From positions 1 through 41,506 of the forward strand of contig CAZTVN010000003.1 of assembly GCA_964617145.1 (NCBI GenBank): a stretch of DNA of 41,506 nt, written 5' to 3'. The position numbers were made by a program, and so were the translations under genes. Positions 134 through 34,488 of this stretch are shown piece by piece. The number at the start of each line of letters is the position of its first letter. Position 1 is the stretch's first letter. Below the pieces are notes generated by a model, which saw only the letters and a list, made by a program, of their open reading frames with translations, did not search any database and was not told where the DNA came from. Source of the DNA: an uncultured Candidatus Peribacteria bacterium. GTDB taxonomy: Bacteria > Patescibacteriota > Gracilibacteria > UBA1369 > JACRIC01.

Positions 134-868
134 GTGCATAGCATTCGATTTTCCCAACTTTTTTACCAATTACGCTCTTTTTTGTTTGCGGTTTTGTTGC
201 CACAACAATGCTTTTCCTGTCGCAAAGAAGGACAATCTTTGTGTCATGAGTGTTTGGACCGTATCCCCTTTCAGGTTGTACAAATGTGTCCTTTGTGTAA
301 AAAACCAAGGCAGGATGGTACTTGTTGTCCTTTTCCTTGTCGAGAAATGAGCTTTCTCGATGCGCTTATTAGCGCTTGTCCTTATGTAAAGGGCAATATC
401 CTTTCTCAAGCTCTTTTCCGTTTTAAATATTTCTTTTTATCCGATATTGGTCATATTCTTGCTTACCTTCTTGTTCATGCTTTTGATATTCATCTTTCTC
501 AACTTACTGAAGATTCTCCGAATTCTTGGATTATTGTTCCAGTTCCACTTTCAAAATCACGGCTAAAATGGCGTGGATTTAATCAAAGTGAGATTCTGGC
601 GCAAGCCTTTTGTAAAGCTCGTAATTTTTCTCTTGTAAAAGCTCTTTCACGTTCACATTACGCAACTTCTCAAACGTTTCTCCATCGGCAAGATCGACTG
701 AAAAACGTATCATGCCAATTTTATTGCACGGTTTCACTTCAAAATATGAATGTTTTTATTATCGATGATATCTCAACAACCGGCGCTACTCTTCAAGAAT
801 GCGCTAAGGTTCTTAAAAATGCTGGATGTCGAAAAGTCGTAGGATTGGTGCTTGGCAGAGGTGTCTAG
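134..868 (+). CDS. comF: ComF family protein (phosphoribosyltransferase-like competence protein)
   Basis: 244 aa. N-terminal paired-Cys motifs (CFSC..CHEC, CPLC) and C-terminal PRTase loop IIDDISTTGATL. GTG start as in the ORF track. The TAG stop lies inside the TAGGGCC box. Confidence 0.8.
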   Translation: MHSIRFSQLFYQLRSFLFAVLLPQQCFSCRKEGQSLCHECLDRIPFQVVQMCPLCKKPRQDGTCCPFPCREMSFLDALISACPYVKGNILSQALFRFKYFFLSDIGHILAYLLVHAFDIHLSQLTEDSPNSWIIVPVPLSKSRLKWRGFNQSEILAQAFCKARNFSLVKALSRSHYATSQTFLHRQDRLKNVSCQFYCTVSLQNMNVFIIDDISTTGATLQECAKVLKNAGCRKVVGLVLGRGV

Positions 869-886
869 GGCCTGTGCACACAAAAG
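866..886. repeat. Family-2 box TAGGGCCTGTGCACACAAA(A)G, solo copy
   Basis: 19 of 19 nt identical to 31843-31861 and to the reverse complement of 32099-32117. It overlaps the comF stop codon. Confidence 0.7.
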
Positions 887-6143: not shown

Positions 6144-7448
6144 ATGTCCCTATCCGAATCTTTTTCTTTCCTTCACTGCCTTAAAGATTTTCAGCAAGAC
6201 TTTCGATTTCGATACCATTCGGAGACTTTTGATTTGCGACACTTTCGAGCATTTTTAAAGCGCAGTAAGATAGAATACGATACCCTTCCCACTATTCTCA
6301 TTGGGGGATCCAAAGGGAAGGGCACTGTAGCAAATTTTCTCTCCTCTCTCCTTCAAGCGCATGGCAAAAAAATTGGACTTTTTTTAAGTCCTTATCTCTA
6401 CGATGTTACGGAGATGATTCGTCTTAATGGTAAAGCAATTTCCCGTGCTCGTTTGGCAAATATACTCAAAAAACTTCGTGGACATATTGGGGGTGGGGAA
6501 CTTTCTTTTTTTGAAATGATGACCGCTTGCGCCCTTCAATATTTCCACGAAGAACATGTTGACTTTGCCATACTTGAGGTCGGTATGGGTGGTGAAAAAG
6601 ATGCGACCAATGTTACCAATCCTTTGCTTTCTGTCATTACTTCGATTGAGCTTGAGCATACTCGCTTCCTTGGAAAATGTCTTTATGACATTGTTCAAGA
6701 AAAAGTCGGTATTTGCCGTTCTCATATACCAGTGATTTTGGGGCCGAATACTTCTTATGTCAGAAATCTTGTAAGGGATTTTGTCCAAAAATCTCCTCTC
6801 ATTGAAAGTAATGCGCTCTTTCCTTATAAAATTTTTTCCTTGACGGCGCAAAAAACCCGTTTTCAAATTTTTTTCAATGGAAAATTTCAGATATTTGATT
6901 TGTCTATTTGCGGAGAGGTATATGTTGAAGATGCGCTACTTGCCTTGACTGCTGCCTCTAAACTTCTTCCTAGCATAGATTTTCAGGCTGTTAGAAAGGC
7001 TTTTGTAGGGGTTCGCCTCCCTGCGCATTTTGAAGTCACAAGATTATCTGACAATCGCATCCTTATACTTGATGTTTTGCATACACCTTATAGTGCTCGC
7101 AGATTTCGGCAAACTTTGGATCGGGTTTTTCCAAAGAAAAAATTTTGTTTTATTGTAGGATTTAGCCGTGATAAAAAGCATCGGGCGATTTTACGATCTC
7201 TTGTTCAATCCAATGATATTCTTATTTTAACGCAATTTTCTTCACCAAGGTGCTACAGCGCCTCATTATTGTATAATTTTTTTATTCAAAATGGGCTGAA
7301 ATGGAATGCGAATTCCAAAATTTTTCTTGAAGAAGATCTTAGTAAGGCATTTCAGAAAATTTTTTCGTTTCCTAGTCAAGAGTATATTTTTTGCCTCGTT
7401 GGATCATTTTTTCTTTTACGTGAAGCCAAAAACAGAAATCTTATTTAA
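6144..7448 (+). CDS. folC: Folylpolyglutamate synthase/dihydrofolate synthase-like Mur ligase family protein
   Basis: 434 aa. P-loop IGGSKGKGTV and EVGMGGEKDATNV, typical of FolC. Confidence 0.7.
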   Translation: MSLSESFSFLHCLKDFQQDFRFRYHSETFDLRHFRAFLKRSKIEYDTLPTILIGGSKGKGTVANFLSSLLQAHGKKIGLFLSPYLYDVTEMIRLNGKAISRARLANILKKLRGHIGGGELSFFEMMTACALQYFHEEHVDFAILEVGMGGEKDATNVTNPLLSVITSIELEHTRFLGKCLYDIVQEKVGICRSHIPVILGPNTSYVRNLVRDFVQKSPLIESNALFPYKIFSLTAQKTRFQIFFNGKFQIFDLSICGEVYVEDALLALTAASKLLPSIDFQAVRKAFVGVRLPAHFEVTRLSDNRILILDVLHTPYSARRFRQTLDRVFPKKKFCFIVGFSRDKKHRAILRSLVQSNDILILTQFSSPRCYSASLLYNFFIQNGLKWNANSKIFLEEDLSKAFQKIFSFPSQEYIFCLVGSFFLLREAKNRNLI

Positions 7449-14489: not shown

Positions 14490-15632
14490 TTATATTTCTG
14501 CTTCGTCTTGCTGAAAAGCGGTGATAACGAGTCGACGCAAATTGGTTCCAACAGGGGTACAGGTCATGAGCGTCAGTCTAAAATCGTCTGTTGGCTTGAG
14601 GATTTCGGTATTTTGTGGCTTTACCTCTTTTTTTTCCGCTATTTTGTAGCGATATTTTTTTTGATTAAAGTAAATAATAATTTCATCCCCGATTTCCAAA
14701 TGCGGAAGAAGCGCAAAAACATCCTTAAATTTTCCATCATCCCACGGATAATAGGAACTGTGACCTGTAATAAACACATTTCCCTTTTGGCCAGGACGGG
14801 CTGAACCTGGATACCGCACCACTCCACGCTTTAAATCTTCTAAAATAGCCTTGCTGAAAGTATTCCAATCCGAGGCGTAGAGCGCTCCTTTTTCCGTTTC
14901 AACAATAGGAATATTTTTCCCGATCTTTGGAATAATAATGCGGTTATCTGGCGGAGTAATATCGTCAAAAATACCAGAAAAGCTTGCATATTCTTGTTTT
15001 GTATTTTTTGTTTTTTCGCTATCCACAAGCTCCAAAAGTTGCTTCTTTTGTTGCGCTTTCAGATCTGGCTCATTCACATCATTTTTGACAATGACCGATG
15101 TAAGAACATTTATCGCCATTGGTTTTATCTCATTCGTATAATAATGTTTTGTTATCTGAAAATATGCTTGATAATTTAAGAGAAAAAATCCAACGATAAA
15201 AATAGCTGAAGCGGCGGCGGCAAAACGTATGCCAAGTTTTGCCAACTCTTTCATTTTTTGTCCCATGAATGCCTTTGATTTCTTCGCTAACTCCAAGAGA
15301 TGTTTTTTGCTTTCACCATTACTGACATGGCCAAAATGCCGAAAATGAGTAAAATTTTCGAGGTATTTCTTGCGGACATGTTGAAAAATGCCATTGGAGA
15401 CGTGCTGAAACATGTCCCTTATGACATGATGAGGCTTGTGGCGTATTGATGGTATTGGATGTTTTACCTCATAAATTTCTATTTCTCCGACTTCTTTTAT
15501 CGATTTCTTTGCGGCTGTTTTCTCTTTTTCGCGCTCTTCTTCCTCTAAATCGCACAAAGGAAGCACAGGGATATCTAATCGATAAAAATTCGTATTCCCT
15601 CGGTAAATTTTATGGCTCAAGGCATGCATCAT
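14490..15632 (-). CDS. Sortase family transpeptidase with a long N-terminal cytoplasmic extension
   Basis: 380 aa. One TM segment (IRFAAAASAIFIVGFFLL). Catalytic His block VFITGHSS and Cys block LTLMTCTP. Confidence 0.8.
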   Translation of the reverse strand: MMHALSHKIYRGNTNFYRLDIPVLPLCDLEEEEREKEKTAAKKSIKEVGEIEIYEVKHPIPSIRHKPHHVIRDMFQHVSNGIFQHVRKKYLENFTHFRHFGHVSNGESKKHLLELAKKSKAFMGQKMKELAKLGIRFAAAASAIFIVGFFLLNYQAYFQITKHYYTNEIKPMAINVLTSVIVKNDVNEPDLKAQQKKQLLELVDSEKTKNTKQEYASFSGIFDDITPPDNRIIIPKIGKNIPIVETEKGALYASDWNTFSKAILEDLKRGVVRYPGSARPGQKGNVFITGHSSYYPWDDGKFKDVFALLPHLEIGDEIIIYFNQKKYRYKIAEKKEVKPQNTEILKPTDDFRLTLMTCTPVGTNLRRLVITAFQQDEAEI

Positions 15633-19363: not shown

Positions 19364-19387
19364 TTAGGGCCTCTGCACAGGCCTTAA
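19364..19387. repeat. Family-2 box as a collapsed near-palindrome (TTAGGGCCTcTGCAcAGGCCTTAA)
   Basis: Lies between convergent rel and ychF and overlaps the ychF TAA stop (19384-19386). ggcct/aggcc form the stem. The left half matches TAGGGCCT.TGCAC of the boxes at 866 and 31843. Confidence 0.55.
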
Positions 19388-20475
19388 ACATGAAAACGAA
19401 AATGCATAATGTCACCGTCTTTGACGACATAATCTTTGCCTTCAACACGTAAAAGCCCTTTTTCTTTTGCTTTTGCCTCACCGGCGCTTTCTACAAAATC
19501 TTCGTATGCTATCACTTCTGCGCGAATAAATCCTTTTTCAAAATCCGAATGAATTATTCCTGCCGCCTGAGGAGCTAAAGTGCCTTTTCCGATGGTCCAA
19601 GCCCGAACCTCTTTTGGTCCGGCGGTGAAGAATGTTTCCAAATTGAGCGTTTTGTAGGCCGTCCGAATAAGATGCGGCAATCCCCTCTCTGTAACTCCAA
19701 GTTCTTTCAAATATTCATCTGCCTCTTCTTCACTTAATTCGTTCACTTCGGCTTCAAGTTTTGCCGAAATAGGTATGATGTCATAATGCTCTGGAATACC
19801 TGTCATGCGGTACCATTTTGACTGGTCTGAATTTATTTCTTTTTCACTTACATTAGCGATAAAAAGCAGTGGTTTTTGCGTCAAAAGATGAAGATCTCGA
19901 ATTTTTTCAAATTCTTCTTTTTCAAAGGATACCGAGTTTGCGAGCTCACCTTTTTTTAATGTTTCTAATAAGCGCTCAAGTAATATCAAATATTCTTTTT
20001 TTTCTTTATCACCGCCCTTAGCTTCATTTCTGGCATGAATAAGCCTTTTTCCTACTGTCTGCAGATCGGAAAGCATCAGTTCCGTAGAGATAATTTCGAT
20101 ATCTTGTTTTGGATCAATTCGATCGTGAACATGGGTAATCGTCGGATCATCAAAAAAACGTACTGCCAATGCGATAGCGTCGCATTCCCGAATGTGCGCT
20201 AAAAACTGGTTTCCCAAGCCATCTCCCTTGCTTGCTCCTTTGACCAAGCCTGCGATATCAACAAATTCGATGCTTGTTCGAATAATTTTTGCTGGTTGAA
20301 CGATTGTGCTTATTTCTTCGATCCTTTTATCTGGCACTGCTACAACACCGATATTTGGTTCAATGGTACAAAAAGGATAATTCGCGACCGCAGCAGCACT
20401 TGATCGAGTCAATGAGTTAAACAGTGTTGATTTTCCTACATTCGGTAGACCGACGATGCCTATTTTAAGTCCCAT
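19384..20475 (-). CDS. ychF: Redox-regulated ribosome-binding ATPase YchF
   Basis: 363 aa. G1 motif GIVGLPNVGKSTLFN and the C-terminal TGS-like VVKDGDIMHFRF. Confidence 0.95.
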   Translation of the reverse strand: MGLKIGIVGLPNVGKSTLFNSLTRSSAAAVANYPFCTIEPNIGVVAVPDKRIEEISTIVQPAKIIRTSIEFVDIAGLVKGASKGDGLGNQFLAHIRECDAIALAVRFFDDPTITHVHDRIDPKQDIEIISTELMLSDLQTVGKRLIHARNEAKGGDKEKKEYLILLERLLETLKKGELANSVSFEKEEFEKIRDLHLLTQKPLLFIANVSEKEINSDQSKWYRMTGIPEHYDIIPISAKLEAEVNELSEEEADEYLKELGVTERGLPHLIRTAYKTLNLETFFTAGPKEVRAWTIGKGTLAPQAAGIIHSDFEKGFIRAEVIAYEDFVESAGEAKAKEKGLLRVEGKDYVVKDGDIMHFRFHV

Positions 20476-22670: not shown

Positions 22671-23585
22671 ATGATCTCCCTTACTTTCAAACGTTTCTCC
22701 CTGACCTCTTTTCTTTTCTCTTGTGCGATCCTAAGTCTTATCATGCTTGCCCCTTCTCATGTTTTTGCTCAAGGATTTATTGGTCAAAAAGAAAATGTGC
22801 AAAAGGCGAACGTAGCATCTCAAGATCTTGAAAAAGTTTTGAAAAAAAATGATGCCATTTCGCAAACCGCTCAAGAGCTTAAAAATATGCTTGAACAAAA
22901 TGGGCAGAAGGTCAGAGACAAAGAAACCTTTTTGACGAAAATGAGAGAATTTTTGTCACTTATCACGGATAATAAAATAACCTATTTAGGTGTTCTTAAT
23001 GACCGCATAAACAATAATAAAGCCATTACAGAAACAGAAAAAAATACGGCTCTTAATCTTCTTGATACCGATATGACATTTTATCAAGAAAAACAAGCAG
23101 CCATTCAGTCCTTAAATGACTGGGAAAACCTCAGGAAGATTGGAAATGAGATTCAAAATTATTCTGAGAAAATTACTCCTCGCCTCCGTGGACTTGCCGG
23201 CCTTCGACTTGTTCAAGAAGCGACGGCACTTGTTGAGCGTGCCAAAAAAATTAGTGCAAAATTATCTGAAAATATTACCAAGTTTGAAAGGCAGAGTTCG
23301 GTTCAAGGAGTAGAGAGTGTTTCATCTGAACCATCATCTGGTTCCGATACAAGTGAATCTTTTAATTTTGACGCGGCTCTTGAAGATTTAGATGCCTTTG
23401 TCGCCGATGCGCAGCAGAACGTGACGCAAGCCAAAGAAAGTTTTATGGAGATGGTCGAGCTTAAAGACTCAACAACCGATCAAAAACCTATAGAATATTT
23501 AAAAGAAGCTCACCTCGATCTCAAAAGTGCCCGTAAAACTTCTGTTACGATCACGATTGAACTCATTAAGAGTACCATAGAGTAA
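22671..23585 (+). CDS. Secreted coiled-coil hypothetical protein
   Basis: 304 aa. Signal peptide ending HVFAQG. Charged and helical throughout. Confidence 0.55.
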   Translation: MISLTFKRFSLTSFLFSCAILSLIMLAPSHVFAQGFIGQKENVQKANVASQDLEKVLKKNDAISQTAQELKNMLEQNGQKVRDKETFLTKMREFLSLITDNKITYLGVLNDRINNNKAITETEKNTALNLLDTDMTFYQEKQAAIQSLNDWENLRKIGNEIQNYSEKITPRLRGLAGLRLVQEATALVERAKKISAKLSENITKFERQSSVQGVESVSSEPSSGSDTSESFNFDAALEDLDAFVADAQQNVTQAKESFMEMVELKDSTTDQKPIEYLKEAHLDLKSARKTSVTITIELIKSTIE

Positions 23586-29976: not shown

Positions 29977-31884
29977 TTATTTTTTACTTTTTGTCAAGGC
30001 TTTGTAGTATGATGCTCTTTCTCTATAGCTTGATGCCTCTTTTGGATAGACGACGGCGAGCAATTCGTAGAGATTTGTCGCCGCCTCCCTGTTTGGTGTT
30101 TGTACGGTATAGTGAATATTGTTTTTGAGTTGAAATTCGTACTTTTCCAGAAGATCGAGCGTCATGCCTTTTATCTTGTCTATTTCATCTTCAGAGCCGA
30201 TTTTTCTCGCCATATCAATGAAATTCCAATAATACCAAAAGTGATTCATGGGATTTAAGTTTAACGCCTTCTTAAAACTCGAAAAAGCGTCCCTATATTT
30301 TCCCTGACTTCTTTGGATTTCCCCGAGTCTTTCCCAGCCTTCGGAATCGATAGGATTTAAGATTAAATGTTTTTCCAGCGCTATTTTTGCGAGATCGATA
30401 TTTCCTTCAGCCAAAAAAGTCTGAAAACGTTTCATAAAATGTTCTCGAGGGAAGAGCGTTTTTTCATAATATTCGAAATACATTTCTCCTTTTTGAAAAT
30501 CGTTCGCGCTTTCAGATTGATAGGCTTTTTTCTCAAATTGAGTGAGTTGCATCTCAAAAATGCCGTTTACGATCAAAATGCCAGCAATCAATAAGGCGAC
30601 GTAGGATCGTTTTTCCCCTTGAAGATGTTGAAAACTTATCATACTTCGCACAGAGGCGAGCAAAATAAAAAACAGAAGAATATTTACGATGAAATTCAAA
30701 TTGTAATCGATTTGATTATGGAGAATGGCTCCCAAAAGTGAGCTTGAGATAATCAGCGCTTCGTATTCATTAAAATTTTCAAGAAATCGGATTCTCTTTA
30801 TCATCGTTCTGGCCAATATGATGAAAAATCCTAACAAAAATATGGCTGCGATGAGTCCTTCTTCTGAAGCTATTTTCAGCAAGATATTGTGAGCGTGATC
30901 GGATGTTCCGAGAAATGTTGTCTGTACATGCGGATAGGCAAATCGGAAACTATAAGGACCGTAGCCGAAAAACGGCTTTTCAAGAGTGAGAGTGATCGCA
31001 CCTTTCCAAAATTCTATGCGTTCTCGTATGGATGTTATATTTTCTTGATGCTGAAAAGTAATTTTTTCTTCAAAAGTGGTTATATCGTGTGTTTGTCCTC
31101 TTATCAGGTTCGATCCTTGAATTATTAAAAATGTGAGCACGGTAATGAGTGCCACTTGTGTGAAAAATCTTTTTTTCCACCTGTAAGGGCGGATGGTGAA
31201 AAACAAAAAAAGACTTTGCAATATGAAAACCAACCATCCTCCTCTTGAATAGGTGAGATAGAGAGCGCTTATTATGAAGGCGGTAGCTAGTGGTGCGAGG
31301 GTTTTTAATTTTCCCTTCAGAAGAGCTAGTGACAAAGGCCAAACCATAATCAAAAACAGCGCTGCGCCATTTGGCCAAAGTTCCCCTGAGTTTTCTAAGT
31401 TTATAAATGTTGCGAAAAAGCGAGGAGAGGGATGAGTAAAATAAAAATAATATCCGATTCCTACGGCAATAATGGAAATGGACAGTATGCCAGGAAGCAA
31501 CCATGATCTGTAAAAAGAGGTATGAGCCAATGAAAGATAGATCGTAATAGATGAGGCGAATACCAGGATTTCAGAAAATCCGTAATTTTTTGTTTGTGAT
31601 AAAAAAAAGGCTGTTATAAGACTTAAGAGAAATCCTAAAAGGAAAATTTTTTCCTTTTTTGATTCTTCTCGTTTCATCCGAAATGCTACCAGCGCTAGAG
31701 GCAATGTACTAAACGCGAGTAAGAGTACGGGGAATAAGTCCTCGCCTTCATCATATTTTTTTGAGTGAAAAAGGAAAAGAAAGTATGCAAAAAGGGAAAT
31801 TAAAAGAATCGGTGGAATTTGTGTGAAATTTTCTCGGATAGTTAGGGCCTGTGCACACAAAGTTTTTACAGATGGAAGAGACAT
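29977..31884 (-). CDS. O-antigen ligase/polymerase (Wzy_C)-like membrane protein with C-terminal TPR repeats
   Basis: 635 aa, more than 10 TM helices. YSRGGW loop block and C-terminal TPR-like repeats (GWERLGEIQRSQGKYRDAFSSFKKALNLNP). The first 14 codons lie inside the 31843-32117 element. Confidence 0.75.
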   Translation of the reverse strand: MSLPSVKTLCAQALTIRENFTQIPPILLISLFAYFLFLFHSKKYDEGEDLFPVLLLAFSTLPLALVAFRMKREESKKEKIFLLGFLLSLITAFFLSQTKNYGFSEILVFASSITIYLSLAHTSFYRSWLLPGILSISIIAVGIGYYFYFTHPSPRFFATFINLENSGELWPNGAALFLIMVWPLSLALLKGKLKTLAPLATAFIISALYLTYSRGGWLVFILQSLFLFFTIRPYRWKKRFFTQVALITVLTFLIIQGSNLIRGQTHDITTFEEKITFQHQENITSIRERIEFWKGAITLTLEKPFFGYGPYSFRFAYPHVQTTFLGTSDHAHNILLKIASEEGLIAAIFLLGFFIILARTMIKRIRFLENFNEYEALIISSSLLGAILHNQIDYNLNFIVNILLFFILLASVRSMISFQHLQGEKRSYVALLIAGILIVNGIFEMQLTQFEKKAYQSESANDFQKGEMYFEYYEKTLFPREHFMKRFQTFLAEGNIDLAKIALEKHLILNPIDSEGWERLGEIQRSQGKYRDAFSSFKKALNLNPMNHFWYYWNFIDMARKIGSEDEIDKIKGMTLDLLEKYEFQLKNNIHYTVQTPNREAATNLYELLAVVYPKEASSYRERASYYKALTKSKK

Positions 31885-32117
31885 ATTTTGTTCAGTTCAA
31901 GAAACGACGACGAAGGTGTGCCCAAAGGCACATCGAGGAGGAGTAACGCAGAAATGGGCAAAATATGTCTCTTCCCTTCGGGTTGAACAGGAACCTGTCA
32001 GGTCTTCTTTGTTGCTCGTCGCTTGTGGAGCGCAATGGCGAAACAGCGCTCCTCGCGCCGCGAATCCGACAACGTTCCTGTTCAACCATCGCAAAAACTT
32101 TGTGTGCACAGGCCCTA
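31843..32117. repeat. 275-bp element bounded by 25-bp perfect inverted repeats (family-2 box) enclosing a GC-richer multi-hairpin core
   Basis: tagggcctgtgcacacaaagttttt (31843-31867) pairs with aaaaactttgtgtgcacaggcccta (32093-32117). Internal perfect stems: 31874-31890/31959-31975 (17 bp), 31981-31994/32074-32087 (14 bp), 32027-32033/32046-32052 (7 bp). Confidence 0.8.
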
Positions 32118-32320
32118 GTAAAAATTTTCGTTTCATTATCCCGATTATATCGGAATTTTTAGTCAAGGGGAAAATTATGTTCTTCGGATCGTATTTCTCG
32201 CATCTAGCATCAGAAGGGATTCGCTCAAAAGATTTTTCTGCATCTTTTGTCTTTCACTTCGAGAAGTCTCGTCGAAGCTCGACTTCTCTTTGTTCCAGAA
32301 CGCGAATCTCGCATCTTCAT

Positions 32321-32392
32321 TGCCGAGGGGCGGAATTGAACCACCGACACGAGGATTTTCAGTCCCCTGCTCTACCACTGAGCTACCTCGGC
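32321..32392 (-). tRNA. tRNA-Phe (anticodon GAA)
   Basis: The reverse complement reads GCCGAGGTAGCTCAGTGGTAGAGCAGGGGACTGAAAATCCTCGTGTCGGTGGTTCAATTCCGCCCCTCGGCA. It folds as a full cloverleaf with a CUGAAAA anticodon loop. CCA is not encoded. Confidence 0.92.
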
Positions 32393-33015: not shown

Positions 33016-34488
33016 TTACATTCTTATTGAAATACCATTCTTTCTTAAAAATTTCTTTACCTTGGCTATCGTGACCTCTTGAAAATGCAACATGCTCGCC
33101 AAAAGTACGCTGTCTGCTTTCCCCTTTTCAAATGCTTCCAGAAGATGCTGCAATGTTCCAGCTCCTCCTGAGGCGATCACTGGAATGTTTACCGATGTAC
33201 TTACTTTTTCTATTAATTTTAGATCATACCCTTGCTTTATACCATCTCTGTCCATAGAAGTTAAAAGGATCTCTCCTGCTCCTAATTTCTCCACTTTTTT
33301 TGCCCAATCTATCGCGTCAAGCTCGGTCTCCTCACTTCCACCTTTTATAAACACTTTATAATTTTTTCCAACTTTTTTCGCATCGATAGCCACCACTATG
33401 CACTGCGATCCAAAATTTTTGGCTCCTTCCTTAATGAGCTTTGGATTTAATATCGCAGCGGTATTTATCGTTATCTTATCAGCTCCACATTTCAGTATTC
33501 GTCTCATTTCTTCTACGCTTTTTATACCTCCTCCCACCGTAAAAGGAATCGATACTTTCTTTGCTACTTTTTCGACCATACGATAGATGGTGTCACGATT
33601 TTCCTTACTCGCGGTTATGTCGAGAAAAACAAGTTCGTCTGCACCCTTTTTTGAATATTTTTCACCCAACTTGCCAGGATCACCGGCGTCTTTTAAGTTG
33701 AGGAAACGCTTCCCTTTCACTACTCTGCCATCTTTTACGTCGAGACAAGGTATAATTCGTTTTGTTAGGGCGCTATTTTTGAGCGCTTCGCACAGGAGAA
33801 TTTTCCCTTCATAAAGAGCTTTTCCAATAATTGCTCCTTCAATGTTTAATTTTTTTAATATTTGCAAGCTTCTCAAGTTCGATATTCCTCCTGATGCGAT
33901 CACTTTTAATCCGAGATTTTTTAACTGCGAAATCATCTCAAAGTTTGGTGATGTTAATGTCCCATCTCTTGAGATGTCTGTGGCGATAATTTCACTGATT
34001 CCTATTTTTTTCAGATTTTTAGCGAATTTTCTATATTCGAGAGCGGTATTTTTTTGCCAACCATTCGTTACCACATTGCCATTTTCGATATCGATGGCGA
34101 CTATAATCGATTTTGCTCCGTAAAAATTTACTAAGTTTTGTAGAAATTTCTGATCAGACGCCGCGACAGTCCCTATCACGATTCGCTCAATGCCGGAATC
34201 GAGATAGAAACGCGCATCTTTCTCCTGCCGTATTCCTCCACCAACTTGCAGAGGAATTTTCACTTTTTTCCTCATTTTCGCTATCAAATTTTGATTTACA
34301 GGATATCCAGCCTTAGCACCATCAAGATCAATAACATGCAACATCGGAGCTCCTTGCTTTGCAAATTTTTCAGCCACAAAAATCGGATTTTCGTTGTATA
34401 CTTTTTTTTCTTCAAAATCACCTCGTAACAGGCGCACGCATTTGCCGCCCATGATGTCAATTGCAGGAATTATCAACATAAAGTACAA
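33016..34488 (-). CDS. hisAF: HisA-HisF fusion protein (ProFAR isomerase fused to the imidazole glycerol phosphate synthase cyclase subunit)
   Basis: 490 aa. The N-terminal half has [15 protein letters not shown] and [11 protein letters not shown] (HisA). The C-terminal half has [16 protein letters not shown] and [10 protein letters not shown] (HisF). The true start is probably the ATG at 34479 (MLIIPAIDI). Confidence 0.85.

Follow-up and report, generated by a model that had tools for sequence, protein, structure and literature searches.

The 41,506-nt window analyzed here, which is the whole stretch of contig CAZTVN010000003.1 from an uncultured Candidatus Peribacteria bacterium, carries an O-antigen-ligase-like gene on its minus strand, and a 275-bp block of inverted repeats (31843..32117) lies over the 5' end of this gene. 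With a probability of about 0.85, we read this block as a non-autonomous DNA transposon, that is, a miniature inverted-repeat transposable element (MITE), of a Peregrinibacteria/Patescibacteria family, inserted at codon 7/8 of the ligase gene, where translation would run into a TGA stop, followed by possible reinitiation or else by silencing of the gene. The first-pass annotation of this DNA had offered two explanations for the block, a riboswitch- or thermosensor-like leader and a MITE insertion that donated a new N-terminus. The second one was upheld, as further copies were found at unrelated loci in other assemblies, all flanked by TA, and in silico excision restores an in-frame native start codon. 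The leader was not supported, with no Rfam match and with copies at unrelated loci in both orientations.

Structure of the element

The complete copy measures 275 bp with the TA at each end and 271 bp without them, for a net insertion of 273 bp. It is bounded by terminal inverted repeats, TAGGGCCTGTGCACACAAAGTTTTT on the left (31843..31867, plus strand) and its counterpart on the right (32093..32117, minus strand), which are 25 nt long, 100% complementary and spaced by 225 nt. The first TA (31843-31844) and the last TA (32116-32117) would be the two copies of a target duplication. The terminal 25-mer is present at these two sites only in the window, and none of 100 shuffled windows contained such a 25-mer. 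Between the repeats stand two hairpins, both with shorter distal stems. Hairpin A (31874..31975) has a stem of 25 nt (31874-31898/31951-31975, 88% complementary) with a perfect 17-nt core (31874-31890/31959-31975), and its tip reads GGTGTGCC-CAAA-GGCACATC. Hairpin B (31981..32087) consists of a perfect 14-bp basal stem (31981-31994/32074-32087) and a GC-rich distal part. In the predicted fold of the 275 nt, the outer stem and the two hairpins form a three-way junction, in which the GGAGCGC/GCGCTCC stem and the GGTGTGCC/GGCACATC tip are also present. The minimum free energy is -144.3 kcal/mol for the plus strand (z = -12.7) and -138.5 kcal/mol for the minus strand (z = -12.3), and none of the 200 shuffled sequences was as stable in either case. 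Repeat search and fold agree on the 25-bp perfect inverted repeats with 17-, 14-, 7- and 6-bp sub-hairpins noticed at first pass. The reported GC-richer core was likewise borne out, with a G+C content of 51.6% for the core and 50.2% for the whole element, as compared to 39.0% in the 500-nt flanks.

The element has no transposase or other recognizable coding capacity. Its open frames of 91 and 79 aa had no Pfam match, and a search of 1.84 billion representative proteins matched these frames only with open reading frames (ORFs) overlapping other copies of the element. The Rfam search suggested at first pass returned no RNA family for the element even at E ≤ 10; the tRNA-Phe gene was the only RNA found, the other matches being noise.

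Copies at unrelated sites

A search for further copies of the repeats, also proposed at first pass, uncovered full, partial and solo copies, which were compared using an nhmmer profile. The closest one is in a Peregrinibacteria metagenome-assembled genome (MAG; GCA_016188725.1), on contig JACPHG010000008.1 (L009, 10012-10286), where all 275 positions align with 98.2% identity. It is inserted after codon 4 of a GT4 glycosyltransferase gene and its reading frame is fully open there. Indeed, residues 5-95 of the annotated protein (MBI2453287.1, here P0027; 486 aa; L009 10001-11461) are 91 element-encoded residues, and the homologues without insert (n = 88) have a median length of 383 aa and begin at approximately residue 99 of P0027. 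A second GT4 protein, P0028, is 99% identical to P0027 and differs from it inside the element segment only, by three residues that match the window copy, a pattern in line with weak constraint on this DNA or with conversion between copies. The identical 91-aa translation is found between other flanks in P0029. A six-frame search with concatenated peptides had P0027 as its sole match.

Two diverged full copies were recovered from ENA and Logan assemblies, one of 273 nt located three codons ahead of the stop of a gene (L014, 782-1054) and one of 276 nt downstream of two tRNA genes (L015, 845-1120). Their ends, TAGGAGCTGTTC(A/G)CATATA..., define a subfamily in which both arms are altered identically. 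Three more loci complete the set: a copy interrupted by a contig end (L002), a 90-bp derivative with an internal deletion (L005) and a LysE-type exporter whose annotated N-terminus is encoded by the element (P0032). Copies occur in either orientation relative to the neighboring genes, whether inside the glycosyltransferase ORF, at a gene 3' end or downstream of tRNA genes. The 19-20-nt ends of the window element recur in L002, L005 and L009, as well as in two loci with more distant or shorter sequences (L004 and L007, see below). The element is thus short, carries terminal repeats that are conserved or co-varying in all copies, and resides at unrelated sites (ligase, GT4, P0029, L014, L015, L002, L005 and P0032, plus remnants at 866 and 19365 of the window), as a MITE does. 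If P0001 (the database protein of the ligase gene), P0028 and P0029 belong to the assembly of the window, that genome has at least three full copies, in the ligase gene, the GT4 gene and a third locus.

Target site and duplication

The TA flanks noted at first pass were verified and extend to the whole family. Every copy with both flanks at hand (window, L009, L014, L015, L004 and L005) is framed as Y-TA[element]TA-R, with T or C before and G or A after, without exception. The window insertion has the context C-TA-A and falls within codon 7/8 of the ligase-like gene. When 273 nt were removed in silico, leaving one TA, the sequence became ATG AAA CGA AAA TTT TTA CTA ACT ATC CGA..., which reads MKRKFLLTIRENFTQIPPILL and gives the ligase an N-terminus of MKRKFLLTIRENF... 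/ MKRKFLLTIRENFTQ. The same excision in L009 yielded MKYIREASKRKLKVLIIAGD. Since 275 - 2 = 273 = 3 x 91, both genes are in frame with their upstream ATG codons only if the net insertion is 273 nt; a zero-bp or 3-bp duplication would lose the frame in the ligase and GT4 genes alike. As two independent in-frame insertions fit only this length, the sequences support a 2-bp TA target duplication.

This duplication, of inferred length, in a CTAG-like target makes an assignment to IS630/Tc1-mariner plausible from sequence. The first-pass annotation had proposed this type. The YTAR context and the TA duplication fit it, and membership in the superfamily is putative, since the searches gave no transposase with ends of this kind. 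We also considered other classes. An IS5/PIF-Harbinger (Tourist-like) element, typified by a 3-bp TWA/TNA duplication and GG(G/C)C-type ends, was not supported, as the trinucleotides bordering GGGCC, TTA at the left end and TAG at the right end in four copies, form no direct repeat, and as a 3-bp duplication would break both reading frames. A RAYT-associated repetitive extragenic palindrome (REP), a class of imperfect palindromes of 20-40 nt with a conserved GTAG head and a Y1 transposase, was also set aside: the base before TAG is T or C and never a conserved G, and the element is 275 bp long (RAYT was sought in the window ORFs only). Neither did a group I intron or intervening sequence fit, with no Rfam match and with flanks that are TA target sites.

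The ligase-like gene and its start codons

The gene body (29977..31842, minus strand) encodes a Wzy_C / O-antigen-ligase-like membrane protein with C-terminal TPR repeats and is intact downstream of the insertion. Its best relatives, with 44-48% identity, are from Candidatus Peregrinibacteria. As described at first pass, an ATG borne by the element (31882..31884, minus strand) opens a 635-aa ORF (29977..31884, minus strand) whose first 14 codons are within the element, this ATG being in the 17-bp stem of hairpin A. It is a candidate reinitiation codon, giving the N-terminus MSLPSVKTLCAQAL. The first-pass annotation overlooked an upstream ATG (32134..32136, minus strand) which is in frame with the gene body and which we infer to be the native start codon. 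It opens the sequence ATG AAA CGA AAA TTT TTA C, followed by the TA of the target; the element is 18 nt downstream of it, and the element-borne ATG 252 nt (84 codons) downstream. The frame entered from this native ATG comprises 7 native and 72 element codons before its sole stop, a TGA (31897..31899, minus strand), which ends a 79-codon upstream ORF; the element-borne ATG follows 12 nt (four codons) on. Recoding of UGA (code 25, as in related Gracilibacteria) was rejected because 9 of the 35 long ORFs of the window end in TGA and because ORFs are long under table 11, the TGA being therefore a genuine stop.

A TATAAT (32144..32149, minus strand) had been reported upstream of the element. Its position was confirmed, and it is best read as the -10-like box of the native start, located 7 nt upstream of the native ATG (TATAAT-CGGGATA-ATG), and not as that of a leader. 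Several genes of the window have this TATAAT/TACAAT-N7-8-ATG layout (for example 14490..15632 on the minus strand, 22671..23585 on the plus strand and c32136), and a Shine-Dalgarno motif is absent upstream of the starts of approximately 27 long ORFs of the window. These features suggest that leaderless or very short-leader mRNAs are common throughout this genome, and the native ligase start may belong to the same type.

Comparison with homologous ligases, another check suggested at first pass, showed that they lack the element-encoded residues. Indeed, the MSLPSVKTLCAQAL segment is absent from all 11 ligase homologues, as expected for an N-terminus donated by the element. In nine of the 11, the first residue is no more than about 5 alignment columns away from the junction, while P0004 and P0005 have longer, unrelated N-terminal extensions. 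The homologues P0002 and P0003 start with MKRESLL, and MKRESLLQSLP aligns to TIRENFTQIPP. A tRNA-Phe(GAA) gene (32321..32392, minus strand), at the position given at first pass, is a syntenic neighbor upstream of the ligase gene and outside the element. In the P0002 orthologue (L010), the ATG is 24 nt after the tRNA-Phe 3' end, so that the tRNA-Phe-ligase synteny is kept without the element. The database gene call (P0001, 627 aa) uses a TTG at c(31858-31860), inside the terminal repeat, and this start is probably wrong whether the gene is reinitiated or silenced.

We propose that the element inserted at a TA in codon 7/8 of the ligase gene, duplicating this TA and moving the gene body away from the native start c(32134-32136) and from the -10 box. 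The net insertion of 273 nt would therefore keep the frame, and in this orientation the element would bring in one in-frame TGA. Ribosomes starting at the native, probably leaderless AUG would translate 79 codons, melting the hairpins on the way, and terminate at the TGA c(31897-31899), with possible reinitiation 12 nt further on at the AUG c(31882-31884). Independent initiation at the element-borne ATG is unlikely because it is buried in a 17-25-bp stem. The product of such an inferred termination-reinitiation would be a ligase in which MSLPSVKTLCAQAL replaces approximately the first 7 residues (MKRKFLL), ahead of the first membrane helix. Otherwise, the ligase gene would be silenced.

Conservation of the fold

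The four full-length copies were aligned over 278 columns, providing 99 pairs and 396 pair cells, of which 98% hold standard pairs. Compensated double changes were seen in 16 of the 99 pairs, of which the terminal repeat has 8, hairpin A 6 (helices 3 and 5) and hairpin B 2 (helix 6). None of 500 shuffles matched these pairing values, and controls with slid partners gave 0-2 compensated pairs. The plus-strand consensus is more stable than the minus-strand consensus (-129.5 vs -118.6 kcal/mol), with approximately 22 G.U cells vs 2 A.C cells. Since a single transposase has to bind the two ends, these are expected to co-vary. In the internal stems, co-variation may have arisen by selection on a single-stranded form or by self-templated correction of quasi-palindromes. 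Such arm-to-arm templated correction yields a compensated pattern without selection. The hairpins belong to the transposon family as such and are maintained by concerted changes of the two arms; they are no sensor evolved for the ligase gene.

Comparison with known elements

IS630 targets CTAG and duplicates TA, and two bacterial MITEs, RUP of pneumococcus and Nezha of cyanobacteria, are derived from IS630/Tc1-mariner elements. The Correia elements of Neisseria (CREE/NEMIS) also duplicate TA, have inverted repeats of about 26 bp and have no known transposase partner; their insertions adjoin or overlap gene starts and, when co-transcribed, the repeats form a long duplex able to affect mRNA fate. 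In its behavior, the window element is closest to these TA-duplicating bacterial MITEs. It shares with the IS630-derived ones its size class, perfect terminal repeats of approximately 25 nt, the lack of a Pfam-matching ORF and the Y-TA-R context at both ends, along with the 2-bp duplication supported here by two in-frame insertions. Its core differs from theirs, being a conserved two-hairpin three-way junction and not a single long hairpin, and no IS630-family transposase with matching ends was found here. With the Correia elements it has in common all the traits listed above for repeats, probable duplication, missing partner and insertion by or over gene starts, whereas its sequence and host phylum are unrelated and it is twice as long.

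For in-frame residence in a small genome, the closest parallel is with the Rickettsia palindromic elements (RPEs), which are inserted in frame in protein genes and annotated as part of the protein (PMC10969869). The GT4 protein MBI2453287.1 likewise holds its 91 element-encoded residues. Unlike the present element, RPEs are without clear terminal repeats or target duplications and are spread through gene bodies (PMC10969869); the insertions described here are at the first or last few codons, and the window copy holds a stop. A resemblance of another kind was noted with the silkworm BmMITE-6, a "Tourist-like" element of 270 bp with the terminal repeat GGGCCTGTGCACACCACGTTTTTTAA and a 3-bp TWA duplication (PMC2997013, Table 1). 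The first 14 nt are identical to those of the window repeat GGGCCTGTGCACACAAAGTTTTTAC and the following G-T-run is shared, with similar lengths (270 vs 271-275 bp) and AT contents (52% vs 50%). The host is an animal, a 3-bp TWA duplication is reported while the flanks here form no 3-bp repeat, and the ends alone were compared. This striking end resemblance is regarded here as a lead, and could be due to chance, convergent transposase sites or shared ancestry.

Alternative readings

Several results weigh against the reading preferred here. No empty site was found at the nucleotide level for the ligase gene, the closest orthologues being 44-48% identical, and the same search for the GT4 gene returned a nearest homologue that is 60% identical; the TA duplication is for this reason deduced from the reading frames and flanks and not directly seen. 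Scans of genome, metagenome and viral contigs with exact 18-20-mers, which are blind to diverged ends, revealed neither an autonomous element nor a transposase with these ends, and BLAST searches against plasmids and phages likewise returned no longer element bounded by them. A strict two-hexamer scan found no complete sigma-70 promoter. The covariation comes from four full-length DNA copies that amount to approximately three independent lineages, and a cut-and-paste MITE has no need for co-variation of its internal stems, so that the element may have an additional function as a single strand. Finally, the element-borne ATG is buried in a stem in a genome without Shine-Dalgarno motifs, and the gene may be inactivated. 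This last point leads to a version of events in which the insertion inactivated the ligase, ORF 29977..31884 being a fresh pseudogene and the element-borne ATG fortuitous. We regard this outcome as a serious possibility, somewhat short of an even chance. The stop comes 79 codons after the native ATG, the downstream ATG is stem-buried and has no Shine-Dalgarno motif, and the insertion is recent given its 98% identity to another copy, making the intact gene body uninformative on selection. Moreover, at most one stop in 91 codons would occur by chance in approximately 7% of cases (rough estimate), which is not very unlikely. Nevertheless, the stop and the restart ATG are in one frame and 12 nt apart, making coupling possible, and this genome does without Shine-Dalgarno motifs anyway. 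The sister insertion in the GT4 gene is fully open and other copies preserve ORF ends, suggesting that only tolerated insertions persist.

A regulatory origin was considered in two forms. The cis-regulatory leader RNA of the first pass, a riboswitch or RNA thermometer that evolved to keep the ligase initiation region closed, would account for the ATG c(31882-31884) being held within a perfect stem of 17 bp in a highly stable fold and for stems kept by compensatory changes. We consider it very improbable, and already largely refuted because of the copies at unrelated loci, some of them reversed with respect to the gene hosting them. The two strands have folds of nearly equal stability, Rfam gave no match at E ≤ 10, and the true start codon precedes the element. 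A leader of this kind is missing from orthologous ligase genes, as in L010 with its ATG so close to the tRNA-Phe gene. The element belongs to a previously undescribed family of a well-known kind, the MITEs, and is no riboswitch. Alternatively, the three-way-junction fold could be selected as a single strand, either as RNA (an RNase III/stability module or a 5'-end expression module for envelope genes) or as single-stranded DNA for transposition. The compensated changes in internal helices 3, 5 and 6 (8 pairs, besides the 8 pairs of the terminal repeats), the more stable and G.U-richer plus-strand consensus, and three insertions within the initial codons of genes for envelope or membrane proteins (ligase, GT4 and the LysE-type P0032) would agree with such a role. 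We find it unlikely: in addition to the small number of independent lineages, correction between quasi-palindrome arms produces this pattern in the absence of selection, the window copy is antisense to the better-folding strand, purifying selection in a gene-dense genome leaves insertions near gene ends, and the GT4 copies P0027 and P0028 differ inside the element only, as for neutral DNA. More speculative still, and in our view improbable, is a portable single-stranded module that would enter surface-glycan and membrane genes of the candidate phyla radiation (CPR) at their first codons and switch or tune them, in frame when forward and as stop-plus-restart when reversed, with the BmMITE-6 ends pointing to a transposase lineage common to bacteria and animals.

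As a MITE family, the element has consequences for annotation and for genome biology. The annotation of two envelope-biosynthesis genes is corrected, the ligase start being wrong in the database call and the GT4 protein containing 91 transposon residues. The family looks active in tiny, gene-dense Peregrinibacteria genomes, in which only insertions into the outermost codons of a gene survive, with a new start or stop codon provided by the element. It could be a useful marker for strain variation in CPR surface-glycan loci. A full-text literature search on MITEs in Peregrinibacteria found none. While no new regulatory RNA is revealed, the missing transposase partner and the co-varying hairpins offer a modest lead for transposon biology.

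Solo ends, remnants and other features

Isolated ends of the element were also found. In the window, a solo terminal repeat (866..884, plus strand; 19/19 identical) has a TAG that is the stop codon of a ComF-like ORF (134..868). Similarly, a solo end in a Patescibacteria MAG (L007, 6272-6290) provides the TAG stop codon of a gene just upstream of map. A mini-palindrome, TTAGGGCCTcTGCACAGGCCtTAA (19365..19387; 22-24 nt, TTAGGGCCTCTGCACAGGCCTTAA), consists of two element ends joined at GTGCAC with 2 mismatches. Convergent genes flank this palindrome, whose end runs into the stop codon of gene 19384..20475 (minus strand). It could be a deletion remnant serving as a bidirectional terminator hairpin.

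Scanning genome contigs with TAGGGCCTGTGCACACAA gave three matches (L006, L007 and L008), and scanning with GGGCCTGTGCACACAAAGTT gave none. The L006 match is within a coding sequence and was taken as probably due to chance. In L008, a Hylemonella MAG, the terminal 18-mer is at the contig start (16-34), and a 43-nt TAGGGCC...GGCCCTA unit is found 2.8 kb away (2808-2850) between convergent genes, its TAGs being the stop codons of both of them. A transposase was absent between these two end-like sites. The metagenome scan returned five loci, of which L001 and L003 are inside a 583-aa ORF and were attributed to chance. No meaningful match was obtained in viral contigs, in plasmids (searched with the whole element and a 30-nt end) or in phages. 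One of the remaining metagenome loci, L004 (JGI994J12354_10003022, 6429-6579), holds an intergenic 151-bp near-perfect hairpin (z = -11.7) in a host with a G+C content of 57%. Its 20-nt ends are identical to those of the window element and its core is unrelated, the same ends surrounding other cargo in a distant host.

The contig of the ligase homologue P0004 holds a separate palindromic element of approximately 125 nt (L013, 7720-7850). It is similar to hairpin A at its tip, which reads CGACGAAG-stem-loop-CGACGAGGA, and hairpins could serve as modules in such genomes. Elsewhere in the window, a single 490-aa ORF (33016-34488, minus strand) appears to be a HisA-like/HisF-like fusion and is located beside hisIE-like and hisH-like genes.

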